A stretch of 63,686 nt of DNA, filler included. It is 8 parts of 8 records of this genome, joined end to end, with 100 filler letters (N's around TTAATTAATTAA, not from the genome) between each part and the next. Parts side by side here need not be neighbours in the genome. Positions count along the whole stretch, not along the records: positions 56,159 to 63,686 come from SRR20825010_6622; 7 more parts are not named here. One strand, given 5' to 3'. The position numbers and the translations under genes are program-made. The notes below the pieces were generated by a model that made no database searches, was not told the DNA's origin, and saw only the letters and a program-made list of their open reading frames with translations. Shown piece after piece: positions 56,059 to 61,267 of the stretch (positions are counted from its first letter, which is position 1; each line of letters starts with the position of its first letter).

Positions 56059-56158
56059 NNNNNNNNNNNNNNNNNNNNNNNNNNNNNNNNNNNNNNNNNN
56101 NNTTAATTAATTAANNNNNNNNNNNNNNNNNNNNNNNNNNNNNNNNNNNNNNNNNNNN
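56059..56158. other. Artificial contig linker
   Basis: N44-TTAATTAATTAA-N44. Confidence 0.99.
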
Positions 56159-57149
56159 CCACGGCAAAGGCTTCGTTGATTTCCCACAAATCAATGTCGG
56201 AAGCTTTCAAGCCTGCTTTTTGAAGCGCCTTCAAGCAGGCGGCTGTAGGGCCCGTCAGCATGATGGTGGGCTCGGAACCGATCACCGCCGCAGCGCGAAT
56301 GCGTGCACGTGGCTTCATGCCAGCCTTGCGGCCGGCTTCTTCACTGCCTACCAGTACCAAGGCGGCACCATCCACGATGCCAGACGAGTTACCGGCGTGG
56401 TGAATGTGGTTGATGGCTTCAACCGTGGTGTACTTGCGCAAAGCCGTGGCATTGAAGCCCATGCTGCCCATCATGGCAAACGATGGCTGCAAAGTGGACA
56501 GGCTTTCCACGGTGGCATTGCCACGAATAAATTCGTCGTGATCAAGCATGATCAAACCATTCAGGTCTTTCACAGGCACGCGGCTTTTGTTGAAACGGCC
56601 TTCGGCTTGTGCCTTGGCAGCACGGCGCTGACTTTCAACTGCATAGGTGTCTACGTCGGTGCGGCTAAAGCCTTCCAGCGTGCCGATCAGGTCTGCAGAA
56701 ATACCCTGGGGAATAAAACCGAGCTTGTCATTGATGCGGGGGTCCATGAACCACGCGCCGCCATCGCTGCCCATGGTCCAGCGGCTCATGCTTTCTACGC
56801 CACCTGCAACTACCATGTCTTCAAGGCCGCTACCCACCTTGGCCGCAGCCAGATTCACGGATTCAAGACCTGAAGCACAGAAACGCGACTGGGTAACACC
56901 CGCCACGGTTTCGGCCCAACCTGCGTCCAGCACTGCGGTGCGTGCAATGTCAGCGCCTTGTTCGCCCACCGGGGTTACGCAACCCAGCACCACGTCGTCA
57001 ACCAGGCTGGTGTCCAGATCATTGCGTTGTTGCAAGGCGGTCAACAGGTTGTTCAGCAACCAAACTGGTGTGGCCTGGTGCAGGCTGCCGTCTTTCTTAC
57101 CTTTGCCCCGTGGGGTTCTTACTGCGTCAAATATCAGTGCCGATGGCAT
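56159..57149 (-). CDS. Acetyl-CoA C-acyltransferase (thiolase, 3' truncated)
   Basis: RFCASG, GGVESMS, GNSSGIVDGA, EINEAFA. Confidence 0.94.
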
Positions 57150-57173: not shown

Positions 57174-57301
57174 TTGGTAATTTAAATTACCAAAACTATC
57201 GTGAATTCGTCACGATCCAGAATGGCGATGTGCAAACGCACAATCAACCCAAGAAGTTACTTTAGAGTACCGGCTCTATGCATATGGTAATTTGCCTTAC
57301 C
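57174..57301. promoter_or_regulatory. Three copies of a palindromic operator upstream of the thiolase
   Basis: Perfect 20-bp palindrome TTGGTAATTTAAATTACCAA (57174-57193); variants GTTACTTTAGAGTACC (57256-57271) and GGTAATTTGCCTTACC (57286-57301). Confidence 0.8.
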
Positions 57302-57740
57302 GTTTGTTTTCTGCGGAATAGCACGCCCCGGTGTCGTGCATGAAAAAACGGTCTTGAATGGGGGGCTGCAAACCAAGTTCCTTGACCACACGCAACAGCT
57401 GAACATCCCGGGTCCACAGCGTGGTGCCCGGCGACAGCAAAACCGAGGCCAACAGGTGGGTGTCCACGTATCCCAAGCCCCGCCCGTGCAACTGGCGAAG
57501 GTCGATCAGTTCAAGCACTTCGCTGGGCGAAGCGAGTACCGTGGGTTCCAGATCAGCCATCCAGGTCAGCACACGTTCCCGTTCGTGGGCTGGTGCCAGA
57601 TTGGCCAGTGCCATTTCGCCCAGGATAAATGGATGCCCCAGCACACTGCCGTCATTGAGCAGGCGCACCAATTGTGCTTCGGACTGGTGAAAGTGATCCA
57701 CCCACACGGAGGTGTCAACAAGCACTTTCACAATTGCCAC
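57297..57740 (-). CDS. vapC: VapC PIN-domain toxin
   Basis: LVDTSVW, HPFILGE, GLGYVDTHLLAS, LWTRD. Confidence 0.93.
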   Translation of the reverse strand: MAIVKVLVDTSVWVDHFHQSEAQLVRLLNDGSVLGHPFILGEMALANLAPAHERERVLTWMADLEPTVLASPSEVLELIDLRQLHGRGLGYVDTHLLASVLLSPGTTLWTRDVQLLRVVKELGLQPPIQDRFFMHDTGACYSAENKR

Positions 57741-57922
57741 TGCCTGCGTGGAATGTCTTTCAGGTCGGGCTGCGTTCCACCCAATAAAGCAAGCCTGCGC
57801 GCACTTTCGCGTTGAATCAGGGCACGCAGTGCTTCGCGAAGCAGTTCATTTCGATCGCCCAGCCCGGAAAGCTGCTGGGCTTTGTTTAATAATTCATCAT
57901 CCAGATTGACAGTGGTTCTCAT
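57728..57922 (-). CDS. vapB: VapB antitoxin (ribbon-helix-helix)
   Basis: MRTTVNLDDELL...REALRALIQRESARRLALLGG...IPRR; overlaps vapC. Start reassigned to 57922. Confidence 0.93.
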   Translation of the reverse strand: MRTTVNLDDELLNKAQQLSGLGDRNELLREALRALIQRESARRLALLGGTQPDLKDIPRRQWQL

Positions 57923-57966
57923 ACACAGGTCCAATTGTTAAGCGAACCAACAATAGCACCATGTGA

Positions 57967-58040: not shown

Positions 58041-58667
58041 ATGACAAAAACACCAGCCACAACAAAGCCCGACACGAACGCACACCCCGCGACCATGCGC
58101 AAAGCCACGCTGGAGCGCATTGAAAATGCGGTTCTTGAACTATTTACTACCCGCGATTTCAACAGCGTGGCGCTGATCGAGGTGGCACGCAGCGCCAATG
58201 TCTCCCTGCAAACCATTTACAAGTATTTTGGCAGCAAGGAACAACTGGTGGCCTATGTGCTGGACACCACGCTACGCCGCTTGGCCAGCCGCATGATTGA
58301 CCACCTGGAGGGAATTGAGGACTACCGCGAACGCCTGCGCAAAACCCTGTGGGTGATGCTGGATTACTTCGACAAGCACCCCAAGGTAATTTTGTTGCTG
58401 ACTGTGGCCATTCCTGCAAGCCGCTATCAAGACCTGCCGGTGTATGAAAGCCCGGAACTGATGGGCGCCTTTCTAGGCATGCTGAAAGAAGGCCAGCACA
58501 AGGGCGTGTTCAACAACACCGTGTCCAGCAAGATGTTGCTGGATGTGTTCATGGGCGTGTTTGGCCGGGTGGCACAAATGCATTTTCTGCGCAAGGAACA
58601 AGACCGGTTGATCGATCAGTTCGATGGGCTGTTTGCCATTCTATGGGGTGCATTGAAAGCCAATTAA
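58041..58667 (+). CDS. TetR/AcrR family transcriptional regulator
   Basis: VARSANVSLQTIYKYFGSKEQL. Confidence 0.93.
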   Translation: MTKTPATTKPDTNAHPATMRKATLERIENAVLELFTTRDFNSVALIEVARSANVSLQTIYKYFGSKEQLVAYVLDTTLRRLASRMIDHLEGIEDYRERLRKTLWVMLDYFDKHPKVILLLTVAIPASRYQDLPVYESPELMGAFLGMLKEGQHKGVFNNTVSSKMLLDVFMGVFGRVAQMHFLRKEQDRLIDQFDGLFAILWGALKAN

Positions 58668-58669
58668 AT

Positions 58670-58698
58670 GGAACCCAGCCCACTGTTGTGGCCACCCA
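58670..58698 (+). promoter_or_regulatory. hrp box (HrpL-type ECF sigma promoter)
   Basis: GGAACC (58670-58675)-N16-CCAC-CC-A (58692-58698), exact match to GGAACC-N15/16-CCACNNA, 29 nt before the orphan ATG, with GGAG RBS in between. Confidence 0.8.
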
Positions 58699-58727
58699 AT
58701 GCTGATTAACCGGAGAGCCCACACCGC

Positions 58728-59954
58728 ATGGTTTTACCTGTTCAGCAATTAAATGCAAATACCTGGCTTAGACTGGGGCAATTGGCAGCCAACGAAAATG
58801 GGCAATCGGCAAACACCGGGGGCGACCCTTTGCCGTCGATTGCGCCCAGCGGAAACGCTTGGGCGGAATTTAAAAGCAACCCAGCCTTACACACCCCTCA
58901 CATTGCGCAACTGAACAGCTCGGTCCAGGGCATTCACAAATTCATCGCAGAGCATGCGCCCGCCGGTGCCGGGCGACATGAAGCCCTGGGTAATCTTCAG
59001 CATTATGCCAACGCCAAAATCAATTGCCCCACCGACAACCTGTCTGCCTTGACTGTCAACGAAAACCGGCGAAACTTGCACCTGTTTGCACAGCAACTGC
59101 ACAACCCCGCCATTCCCACCGACCAAAAACTGGCTGCGGTGCTTGATTTGACCAAAGGATTGGGCGTGTGCACGGAAGGCGAAACACTGAACATTCTCGA
59201 CAGCACACAGCAACTGTGCAACCGCCAGCAAGGCTTGGCGGGTCTGTTGGTCAACACCAAAAACAAGCTGGTGGAACAGCACTTGCAGCAACTGGTCAAA
59301 CACGAAGATGCGTTACGCCTGCCAAACCAACTGGCCGGTGACCTGGAAATTCACCATGTGCAGGCATTAAAAAACCATGTTGCCGGGCAGTGGGGCCTTT
59401 CCGTGCAAGAAGACCGTTACGCCACGTCCGCCTATCAGGCGCGGGCGGGGAAAATGGCCAGTGCCCTGCTGGCGCAAACCATCACCCCGGCAGTATTGGC
59501 CAACCATGTGGCTGAACAATTGGAGCAGGCATTAATCAGCCAGACCGCACCGGGCCTGCGTGAAGGCATGCCGGCTGCGCTATTGAAAACAGAACCACTT
59601 CGCCGCGCCATTCAGGCGGAATTCGGCCAAAGCATTGACCTTGAACAATGCCTGGAATTCAATGACGACTACAGCGAAGTGCGCCTGAAACCGCAACAAG
59701 ACCTCGCCTTACACATTGTGAAAGCTTTTCAGGACATTGGGCTGGTGCCACCCCACGCCAACCCGAAGCATGTATTGAACCAACCCACACCCAAGCTGGA
59801 ACAAGCGATTGAACAGGTTGGAGAACTGCGCGGCGATGTAGCGCATCAAAGATTACTCGTGAACTGCATCAACAGCTTCTGGTTTGGTCACGCGGCAACG
59901 CCGCAAGATTCAAAAGACAAAGAACAGCGAGAGCATTCGTTCAGGCCCGTATAG
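58728..59954 (+). CDS. Hypothetical protein, candidate type III secreted effector
   Basis: 408-aa ORF with RBS and hrp box; polar N/Q/S/P-rich N-terminus, helical body with C148-T-E-G and D205-L-E-I-H. No family recognised with certainty. Confidence 0.7.
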   Translation: MVLPVQQLNANTWLRLGQLAANENGQSANTGGDPLPSIAPSGNAWAEFKSNPALHTPHIAQLNSSVQGIHKFIAEHAPAGAGRHEALGNLQHYANAKINCPTDNLSALTVNENRRNLHLFAQQLHNPAIPTDQKLAAVLDLTKGLGVCTEGETLNILDSTQQLCNRQQGLAGLLVNTKNKLVEQHLQQLVKHEDALRLPNQLAGDLEIHHVQALKNHVAGQWGLSVQEDRYATSAYQARAGKMASALLAQTITPAVLANHVAEQLEQALISQTAPGLREGMPAALLKTEPLRRAIQAEFGQSIDLEQCLEFNDDYSEVRLKPQQDLALHIVKAFQDIGLVPPHANPKHVLNQPTPKLEQAIEQVGELRGDVAHQRLLVNCINSFWFGHAATPQDSKDKEQREHSFRPV

Positions 59955-60018: not shown

Positions 60019-60061
60019 ACTAATGCCCCACTTTTAACCACAATCCTGAAAATTCACCAAA

Positions 60062-61267
60062 ATGGAACAAATTACTCTCGCACTGGACACTCTTTTTGTG
60101 CTTCTAGGCGCCATCATGGTGCTTGCAATGCACGCTGGTTTTGCATTCCTGGAAGTGGGCACGGTGCGCCACAAAAACCAGGTCAATGCGCTTGTTAAAA
60201 TTCTGGCCGACTTCTCGGTCAGCACCATCAGCTACTTTTTCATTGGCTACGCGATCGCCTATGGCGTGGGTTTCTATGAGCCCGCTGCTGTGTTGAACGA
60301 GGGCAGCGGTTACGCCTTGACCAAGTTCTTCTTCCTGCTGACCTTCGCTGCGGCCATTCCGGCCATTGTGTCGGGTGGCATTGCCGAACGTGCACGGTTT
60401 GTGCCCCAACTGGTGGCCACAGCCGCCTTGGTGGGCTTGGTATACCCGGTGTTTGAAGGAATTGTCTGGAATGGCAACTACGGCTTTCAAGAATGGCTGA
60501 CCGCCAGTTTTGGCGCGCCGTTCCTGGACTTCGCGGGCAGCGTGGTGGTACATGCTGTGGGCGGATGGATTGCCCTGGCAGCCGTGTTGTTGCTGGGTTC
60601 GCGCCGGGGCCGCTACACGAAAGACGGCCGCATCAGTTCACACCCACCTTCATCCATCCCCTTTCTGGCCTTGGGCAGTTGGGTGCTGGCTGTGGGCTGG
60701 TTTGGCTTTAACGTGATGAGCGCCCAGAAAATTGAAGGCATTTCAGGCCTGGTGGCCGTGAACAGCCTGATGGCCATGGTGGGCGGCACACTGGGTGCAT
60801 TGATCGCCGGGCGCAACGACCCAGGCTTCGCCTACAATGGCCCATTGGCCGGTTTGGTGGCGGTGTGTGCGGGCAGCAATATCATGCACCCACTGGGCTC
60901 ACTGGCTGTGGGGTCAATGGCTGGCGTGCTGTTTGTGTACATGTTTACCTTCACCCAAAACCGTTTGAAAATTGATGATGTGCTGGGTGTGTGGCCTTTG
61001 CACGGTATTTGCGGTGCGTTCGGCGGCATTGCGGCCGGTGTGTTTGGCCAGCAGGCCTTCGGCGGCATGGGTGGTGTTTCCTTCATGAGCCAACTGATTG
61101 GCACACTGGCGGGCGTGGTGTTTGCACTGGCAGGCGGACTGGTGGTGTACGGCCTGCTGAAGCTGACCGTGGGCATTCGGTTGAGCGACGAGGAAGAATT
61201 CAACGGCGCTGACCTGACCATTCACAAAATCAGCGCAAGCCCCGAACGCGAAACCAGCAGCTGGTAA
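60062..61267 (+). CDS. amt: Ammonium transporter (Amt family)
   Basis: SGGIAER, DFAGSVVVH, GWFGFN, LAGLVA, IDD.LGVWPLHG (twin His present). Confidence 0.96.
   Translation: MEQITLALDTLFVLLGAIMVLAMHAGFAFLEVGTVRHKNQVNALVKILADFSVSTISYFFIGYAIAYGVGFYEPAAVLNEGSGYALTKFFFLLTFAAAIPAIVSGGIAERARFVPQLVATAALVGLVYPVFEGIVWNGNYGFQEWLTASFGAPFLDFAGSVVVHAVGGWIALAAVLLLGSRRGRYTKDGRISSHPPSSIPFLALGSWVLAVGWFGFNVMSAQKIEGISGLVAVNSLMAMVGGTLGALIAGRNDPGFAYNGPLAGLVAVCAGSNIMHPLGSLAVGSMAGVLFVYMFTFTQNRLKIDDVLGVWPLHGICGAFGGIAAGVFGQQAFGGMGGVSFMSQLIGTLAGVVFALAGGLVVYGLLKLTVGIRLSDEEEFNGADLTIHKISASPERETSSW

Follow-up and report, generated by a model that had tools for sequence, protein, structure and literature searches.

We analysed a 63,686-nt stretch of DNA made of eight joined parts (the window, along which all coordinates here are counted) and found in it a gene for a 408-aa protein, P0001, that lies directly behind a predicted HrpL-type promoter, or hrp box. 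Taken as a whole, the results are best explained if P0001 is a substrate (effector) of the Hrp1-like type III secretion system (T3SS) of Limnobacter, expressed from this box, and we consider this explanation probable. P0001 is a hrp-box-driven candidate effector whose uncharacterised, catalytic-looking domain is shared with a probable Ralstonia effector. The first-pass annotation of this DNA had proposed an orphan, stand-alone effector. The observation behind that proposal is confirmed and the effector interpretation is supported, with secretion and activity being predictions; both 'orphan' and 'stand-alone' were overstated, because P0001 belongs to a conserved family. Each of the 41 homologues that a search returned (34-100% identity) comes from a Limnobacter or Burkholderiales metagenome genome, and two of them are Limnobacter by NCBI name.

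The box occupies positions 58670-58698 (+ strand) and consists of a -35 element GGAACC (58670-58675), a 16-nt spacer and a -10 element CCACCCA (58692-58698), which together with the next bases, AT, reads CCACCCAAT. It starts 2 nt past the TAA stop codon (58665-58667) of a tetR-family regulator gene (58041-58667, +; Pfam TetR_N, E 1.7e-10) and ends 29 nt ahead of the ATG (58728) of the 408-aa open reading frame (ORF; 58728-59954, +), in a tetR-to-ATG gap of 60 nt. Read from the sequence, a Shine-Dalgarno-like GGAGAG (58712-58717, +) is located 10-12 nt 5' of the ATG; its GGAG core (58712-58715) is 12 nt from the ATG, a rather long spacing. The gene that follows encodes an ammonium transporter (amt, 60062-61267, +; Pfam Ammonium_transp, E 1.2e-84). 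The GGAACC-N16-CCACCCA motif in the gap after tetR, the GGAG ribosome binding site, the 408-aa ORF and the TetR and Amt neighbours had all been described in the first-pass annotation and were found as described. No sigma-70-like promoter was found between tetR and the 408-aa ORF. The strict box pattern occurs once in the window against 0.02 matches expected, and 2 of 100 shuffled sequences had one; its N15 form has no match in the window. A looser pattern, GGAACY-N15/16-BCACNNA, also matches once, against 0.47 expected, with a match in 38 of 100 shuffles. Since a single match could arise by luck in a whole genome, it is not decisive alone; what is decisive is conservation among orthologues.

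That conservation, which the first-pass annotation had made a condition of its proposal, was seen in every related locus examined (8/8; L001-L007 and L108). Each has GGAAC[CT]-N15/16-[CTG]CAC..A directly after the tetR stop codon, with a spacer whose sequence varies, and each keeps the order tetR, box, gene, amt. At two loci (L001 and L004) the box is GGAACC-N15-CCACTCAA, equal to the published HrpL consensus, GGAACC-N15-CCACTCAAT, as quoted for Herbaspirillum and P. syringae (PMC3487950). The element has a GGAACC -35, a 15-16-nt spacer, a CCACNNA -10, a site just upstream of a gene and conservation in orthologues, the features by which we recognise an hrp box. TetR is present at the same position in 8/8 loci at 79-96% identity (84-96% in seven), and Amt is 93-99% identical in seven loci, the eighth, L108, having just a cut 79-aa stretch (84%). 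P0001 orthologues in seven loci are 48-82% identical. P0001 thus evolves fast in a core region that is otherwise stable and whose flanking genes are far better kept; the G+C content of the gene resembles that of its neighbours. Separately, a 253-aa metagenome protein, P0040, matches P0001 residues 1-141 (100% identity by BLASTP, 98% in a second search) and also carries an EamA domain (PF00892); it represents either a rearranged allele or a chimera created during assembly.

We examined the T3SS, its sigma factors and the regulon in five related genomes that carry orthologues 48-82% identical to P0001. SctC scores above the curated cut-off in each of them. The L. alexandrii genome (G001) has a cluster in which one strand carries sctW-x-x-sctV-sctD-sctN-x-x-sctQ-R-S-T-U and the opposite strand sctI-J-x-L-F-C, together with an SseC-like translocon gene; this is a full non-flagellar T3SS in Hrp1-like order. 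The T3SS that the first-pass annotation called for is therefore present in the relatives, by SctC in all five and as a full system in this one. One box precedes sctW by 34 nt, another precedes sctI by 38 nt and a third lies within sctL, ahead of sctF, so that, as judged from sequence, the candidate effector and the secretion machine would be co-regulated, the same box preceding the sctW and sctI operons. Among 81 sampled genomes of the family, the P0001 domain occurs in 5 and SctC in 13, with both in 4 (hypergeometric probability about 0.002, uncorrected for relatedness). A T3SS is listed for Limnobacter sp. MED105 (PMC2702493, table 1), and the Limnobacter T3SS has been described as a sister of Hrp1, nearest to that of Herbaspirillum, by a study in which Limnobacter was dominant in three Ostreococcus tauri culture microbiomes (PMC4224133). 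These published systems agree with the cluster found in the relatives; the relevant parts of those papers describe the machine only, giving no regulon, promoter motif or effector. In the literature searched we found no paper pairing Limnobacter with HrpL, and the portions of articles returned for Limnobacter, effector and injectisome named no Limnobacter effector.

The HrpL-like sigma factor that the first-pass annotation had likewise looked for is also present in 5/5 relatives. As query we used the HrpL of Pantoea pPATHpag, recognised by its position beside sctW, a PAS kinase and response regulator (hrpXY-like genes) and a sigma-54 regulator. Its best matches in every one of the five genomes are two paired extracytoplasmic function (ECF) sigmas, at 91-101 bits and 35-38% identity, which outrank RpoE at 73 bits. 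Between the two sigma genes is a gene for a 443-aa sigma-54 activator with Sigma54_activat and HTH_8 domains (HrpS-like). The first sigma gene is preceded in 5/5 genomes by TGGCAT-N5-CTGCA, a sigma-54-type promoter about 45 nt before its ATG, and the second by a box, GGAACCATCTG...GCACTCA, also kept in 5/5. By eye, no sigma-54 promoter was seen before the second sigma gene in the upstream alignment, and nothing upstream of rpoE formed a clear motif that could be set against the box. In L. alexandrii this regulatory locus (L054/L051; G001:C8:306256-312729) runs from the HrpL-like ECF sigma with the sigma-54 promoter through the HrpS-like activator and a box with a 112-aa ORF of no family to the convergent second sigma; the same arrangement is found in L068-L071. 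The second sigma has, besides its own box, a co-transcribed 143-aa ORF of no known family, possibly an anti-sigma factor. In group I systems an activator acts with sigma-54 to express HrpL, which then acts at hrp boxes. The two marks of an Hrp1 (group I) system, a sigma-54 promoter before an hrpL-like gene and an HrpS-type activator, are thus found in the relatives, and their arrangement, as read from the sequence, is the group I scheme with an extra box-driven sigma paralogue. The sigma genes of G001 are outside the 40 kb read around its T3SS cluster. Another ECF sigma, about 38 kb from that cluster, was set aside as the cognate factor because an RskA-like anti-sigma ORF follows it (by eye) and it has no match to Pantoea HrpL at E up to 1e-5.

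The first-pass annotation had expected the motif to be enriched across the genome. In bulk it is not: the loose box has 28 matches in G001 against 60 for the reversed control. At promoter positions it is strongly enriched: an ORF starts 15-60 nt after 9 of the 28 matches, and 12 of the 28 are intergenic, as against 1 of 30 and 2 of 30 among the first 30 of the 60 complement-pattern control matches. The nine boxes near ORFs precede the P0001 orthologue, sctW, four ORFs of 147-215 aa without a Pfam family, two GGDEF proteins and a RadC-like protein, and several of the G001 sites are found again, with altered spacers, in the four remaining genomes. Five Pfam-less ORFs of 112-215 aa were noted (L030:1566-2027, L038:1568-2011, L039:820-1467 (-), L040:1562-2158 and L051:701-1039), four of them 33-39 nt behind boxes in L. 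alexandrii and the last with its box 269 nt upstream; they are candidates for further effectors, chaperones or helpers. The two GGDEF diguanylate cyclase genes, L042:322-1473 (-) and L045:401-1450 (-), are 27 and 50 nt behind their boxes, the first site being kept in 5/5 genomes, which suggests that cyclic di-GMP signalling is tied to the same regulon.

This system resembles the HrpL regulons of P. syringae, Erwinia/Pantoea and Herbaspirillum in having GGAACC-N15/16-CCAC..A before T3SS operons and scattered (candidate) effector genes, and likewise in its sigmas at 35-38% identity to Pantoea HrpL, the sigma-54 promoter before one of them, the HrpS-like activator and the Hrp1-like gene order. 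It differs from them in having two HrpL-like paralogues, the second with its own box and 143-aa ORF, in the location of the sigma genes outside the 40 kb around the G001 cluster, and in its host, an aquatic, alga-associated betaproteobacterium, for which sigma dependence is predicted.

The P0001 protein begins with a polar, low-charge segment, residues 1-42 (58728-58853, +), whose composition would suit a secretion signal. Residues 1-50 contain 25 S/T/N/Q/P/G and 5 charged residues, and there is no hydrophobic Sec-type core, the highest Kyte-Doolittle mean over 12 residues being 0.28; the first-pass description of a polar N-terminus of low charge and without a Sec signal is thereby upheld. In the structure model residues 1-42 are poorly ordered, with a predicted local distance difference test (pLDDT) score of 46-75 per 10-residue block, and they are the least conserved part of the close-family alignment (A1). 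Residues 43-340 (58854-59747, +) form a core domain, modelled as almost wholly helical with pLDDT 95.7 and a predicted template modelling score of 0.85; pLDDT is 80 for the full-length model. Across alignments of 30 and 45 relatives, reaching down to 19% identity, the sole invariant columns are C148, G151, H209 and D229. Cys148 (codon TGC, 59169-59171, +), in the motif GLGVCxEG at the N-terminal end of a helix, is the proposed nucleophile, on the evidence of the alignment, the model and an aligned Ralstonia cysteine; His209 (CAC, 59352-59354, +) is in EIHHVQALKN and Asp229 (GAC, 59412-59414, +) in EDRYA. Glu150 is invariant in A1, not in the wider alignment, A2. From this pattern we propose that the core may be a thiol enzyme with a Cys-His-Asp triad. 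P0001 has no Pfam match even at E up to 5 and no NCBIfam match, so the housekeeping family that the first-pass annotation had named as a way to overturn its proposal did not appear; the homology is instead to a probable Ralstonia effector.

A full-library HMMER search gave 79 relatives, many being proteins of 600-1200 aa that carry the domain near the N-terminus; the long relatives have ankyrin repeats, and one (P0077) has a NEL ligase domain. When P0001 was compared by tblastn with 72,556 plasmid records, 113 records matched, all of them Ralstonia megaplasmids (best E 2e-6). The Ralstonia target, P0117, is a 798-aa R. solanacearum protein annotated 'ankyrin repeat domain-containing protein', whose N-terminal domain is 24% identical to P0001 over 204 residues (pairwise E 1e-10), with C148, H209 and D229 aligned. 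The sole perfect hrpII box (TTCG-N16-TTCG) in the 7.7-kb Ralstonia locus is 158 nt before the P0117 ATG, so that P0117, like P0001, has its own genus's T3SS promoter. The two differ in that P0117 carries C-terminal ankyrin repeats whereas P0001 consists of the domain by itself, without a Pfam repeat match, and in that the promoter there is an HrpB/hrpII box and here an HrpL box. The P0117 gene is 2397 nt long, near the 2400 nt listed for the RipAP alignment (PMC3878972). P0117 is probably the plant-pathogen effector RipAP/Rip60, an assignment based on gene length, megaplasmid location and ankyrin repeats and annotation rather than on comparison with a named RipAP sequence, and through it P0001 would have homology to a known effector. 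RipAP is listed as an ankyrin-repeat effector that suppresses the flg22-triggered burst of reactive oxygen species (PMC7488467). The Ralstonia GMI1000 counterpart of the ankyrin gene (L107, NC_003296.1 1545671-1549191) matches in two pieces over 3.5 kb rather than 2.4 kb and so seems interrupted, which would fit RipAP being referenced to UW551 rather than to GMI1000 (PMC3878972). The long homologues in G012, G055 and G060 have neither an HrpL box nor a perfect hrpII box in about 0.7-1 kb upstream, a sequence too short to conclude from.

The stretch is nearly whole in 18 sequencing runs from 10 studies, of algae, freshwater, marine, seawater, aquatic and soil metagenomes and some without a habitat record, the best match being an algae metagenome. 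Limnobacter is common in fresh and sea water and can be the dominant bacterium in cultures of the green alga Ostreococcus. A metatranscriptome run contains a 408-nt contig identical to 58717-59124, which starts 19 nt past the -10 element and excludes tetR, a weak hint that it is a transcript from the box. That RNA run covers just 58717-59124 and 60046-60100, the uncovered parts being uninformative, and contigs from DNA runs cover the stretch. The Limnobacter T3SS in Ostreococcus cultures (PMC4224133) and the algae metagenome as best match lend some support to an alga or a protist as the putative target.

Several observations weigh against P0001 being a secreted effector expressed from the box. 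The absence of a detectable terminator between tetR and the ORF makes read-through from tetR possible, no chaperone gene adjoins the ORF, and the RNA contig cannot prove a transcript start, as DNA can contaminate RNA libraries. P. syringae effectors typically have at least 10% Ser in the first 50 residues, I, L, V or P at position 3 or 4, and no Asp or Glu in the first 12; P0001 follows two of these three rules, its Ser content being 8%, and in turn they hold for 19, 13 and 14 of 27 family members. No solved structure or family gives P0001 an activity: by sequence, the family profile matched no solved structure at E up to 1 and the wider profile gave three chance-level matches (E 0.14-0.81), and Foldseek against the PDB gave none at E up to 0.001 for either the full or the domain model. 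The invariant Cys, His and Asp could instead bind metal. The T3SS, the HrpL-like sigmas and the regulon were all observed in relatives of the source bacterium, and one relative, G046 (L108; G046:C6:203787-205094), has tetR, box and orthologue but no SctC above the cut-off, just a partial SctV-like frame of 482 aa covering profile positions 2-439; this genome is either an incomplete assembly or one with a decaying T3SS. To these points are added the lack of bulk motif enrichment in G001 and the boxes there before genes that do not look like effectors (the two GGDEF proteins and RadC).

Some of the same observations would suit a gene that belongs to an HrpL-type regulon but whose product stays in the bacterium or reaches the needle base, either as a regulatory or accessory T3SS protein (gatekeeper-like, for example) or as a co-regulated cytoplasmic enzyme. 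The nearest protein-atlas clusters by language-model features are HrpJ/TyeA/SepL gatekeepers, at 0.79-0.84, below the 0.9 threshold for a lead; the GGDEF and RadC genes are non-effectors behind boxes; P. syringae HrpL regulons include non-effector genes, which are stated to be co-regulated there (PMC3879358); and the N-terminal rules are followed in part only. We nevertheless think this unlikely, given that P0001 shares homology with the domain at the N-terminus of a Ralstonia ankyrin protein whose gene has an hrpII box in front of it, that the domain is fused to ankyrin repeats and to a NEL domain in other bacteria, that P0001 evolves much faster than the flanking genes, and that the G001 T3SS cluster already has its own SctW/HrpJ.

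The core of P0001 might be a very divergent NEL-type E3 ubiquitin ligase (IpaH/SspH/SlrP-like), with Cys148 in C-x-E standing for the NEL catalytic cysteine, whose motif is C-x-D. Among natural structures that align with a large part of the model, those of NEL ligases score best. For the full model these are SspH1 (Z 6.2, 220 residues aligned, root-mean-square deviation (rmsd) 7.1), IpaH (Z 6.0, 204), SlrP (Z 5.7, 218) and IpaH1880 (Z 5.4, 198), and for the domain model, over residues 127-298 only, they are SlrP (Z 7.6, 133, rmsd 5.2), SspH1 (Z 7.5, 137, rmsd 4.8) and IpaH1880 (Z 7.2, 80, rmsd 2.6); SspH2, IpaH3 and IpaH are in the top 20 Foldseek rows at non-significant E values of 1.2-1.9. 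Like the NEL ligases (IpaH, SspH1/2, SlrP, NopM), P0001 has an all-helical domain with a single Cys that would be essential, the weak structural resemblance being over the C-terminal half, and the two domains co-occur in the distant relative P0077. Helical proteins, however, often give Z values below about 13, and designed helical bundles reach equally high scores. P0001 has no sequence or profile similarity to NEL (PF14496): hhalign of the family (A3) against five natural NEL domains (A4) gave a probability of 0.15%. The family has C-x-E-G rather than C-x-D, and the NEL definition is not known to include an invariant His or Asp. The sole Pfam NEL match among 51 scanned members and distant relatives is to a separate C-terminal domain of P0077, which thus carries both domains side by side. 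Because of the low profile probability, Z values that are common for helical proteins and the presence of both domains in P0077, we do not label P0001 a NEL ligase, an identity to which we give little credence.

We regard it as very improbable that the box is read by another ECF sigma (stress or envelope), or that the gene is the second gene of a small-molecule-responsive tetR operon, with no tie to secretion. In favour of such a reading, GGAAC is frequent as a -35 element of ECF promoters, tetR invariably comes immediately before the gene and no terminator separates the two, and genome-wide box counts are not above control. Against it, T3SS operons have this two-part motif in front of them too, the sigmas closest to HrpL are encoded beside an HrpS-like activator, the -10 CCAC..A with its 15/16-nt spacer fits the hrp box consensus (PMC3487950), and the domain is found with SctC in 4/5 genomes as compared with SctC in 13/81 overall.

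Other features were noted in the window. Just upstream of tetR, at 57297-57934 (-), are an ORF for a 147-aa PIN-domain protein and a 68-aa ORF that overlaps its start; the two are probably a VapBC-type toxin-antitoxin pair. A 348-aa thiolase ORF (56103-57149, -) matches just 54 of 123 positions of the Thiolase_C profile and may be truncated or frameshifted. The G+C content is 0.48 for the window overall and 0.54-0.58 for tetR, the 408-aa ORF and amt, so the rest of the window is in parts much lower in G+C.

Returning to P0001 as a T3SS effector, the way in which the system would work can be set out as follows. An HrpS-type activator, acting with sigma-54, would turn on an HrpL-like ECF sigma, which would read the GGAACC-N15/16-CCAC..A box 2 nt past the tetR stop and transcribe the gene along with the T3SS operons and a limited number of other, mostly unannotated, genes. 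The disordered polar N-terminus would carry P0001 through the needle, and inside the eukaryotic target, an alga or a protist, the helical core would work as a thiol enzyme through Cys148, His209 and Asp229; candidate activities are those of a protease, a deubiquitinase-like hydrolase, or a ubiquitin or acyl transferase. In the Ralstonia protein (probably RipAP) and many other ankyrin proteins, the shared domain would supply the catalysis, with targeting left to the repeats. More tentatively, the core of about 300 residues may represent a new class of Cys-His-Asp thiol effector enzyme, perhaps of the ubiquitin system and with a C-terminal half that echoes NEL, which occurs alone in alga-associated Limnobacter and fused to ankyrin repeats in Ralstonia (RipAP) and other Burkholderiales; we hold this to be possible, though doubtful at present.

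The Limnobacter T3SS had already been noted, and in the literature searched we found its regulon and effectors undescribed. The locus offers a conserved promoter motif with which to list the regulon, a first candidate effector family and a link to a Ralstonia effector domain. On the more tentative reading of the core as a new class of thiol effector enzyme, Limnobacter would live free in water and inject enzymes into algal or protist cells under the control of an HrpL cascade with two sigmas, and the biochemical activity of RipAP would be explained too. What such a bacterium injects, and into whom, becomes open to experiment, with three residues to mutate.

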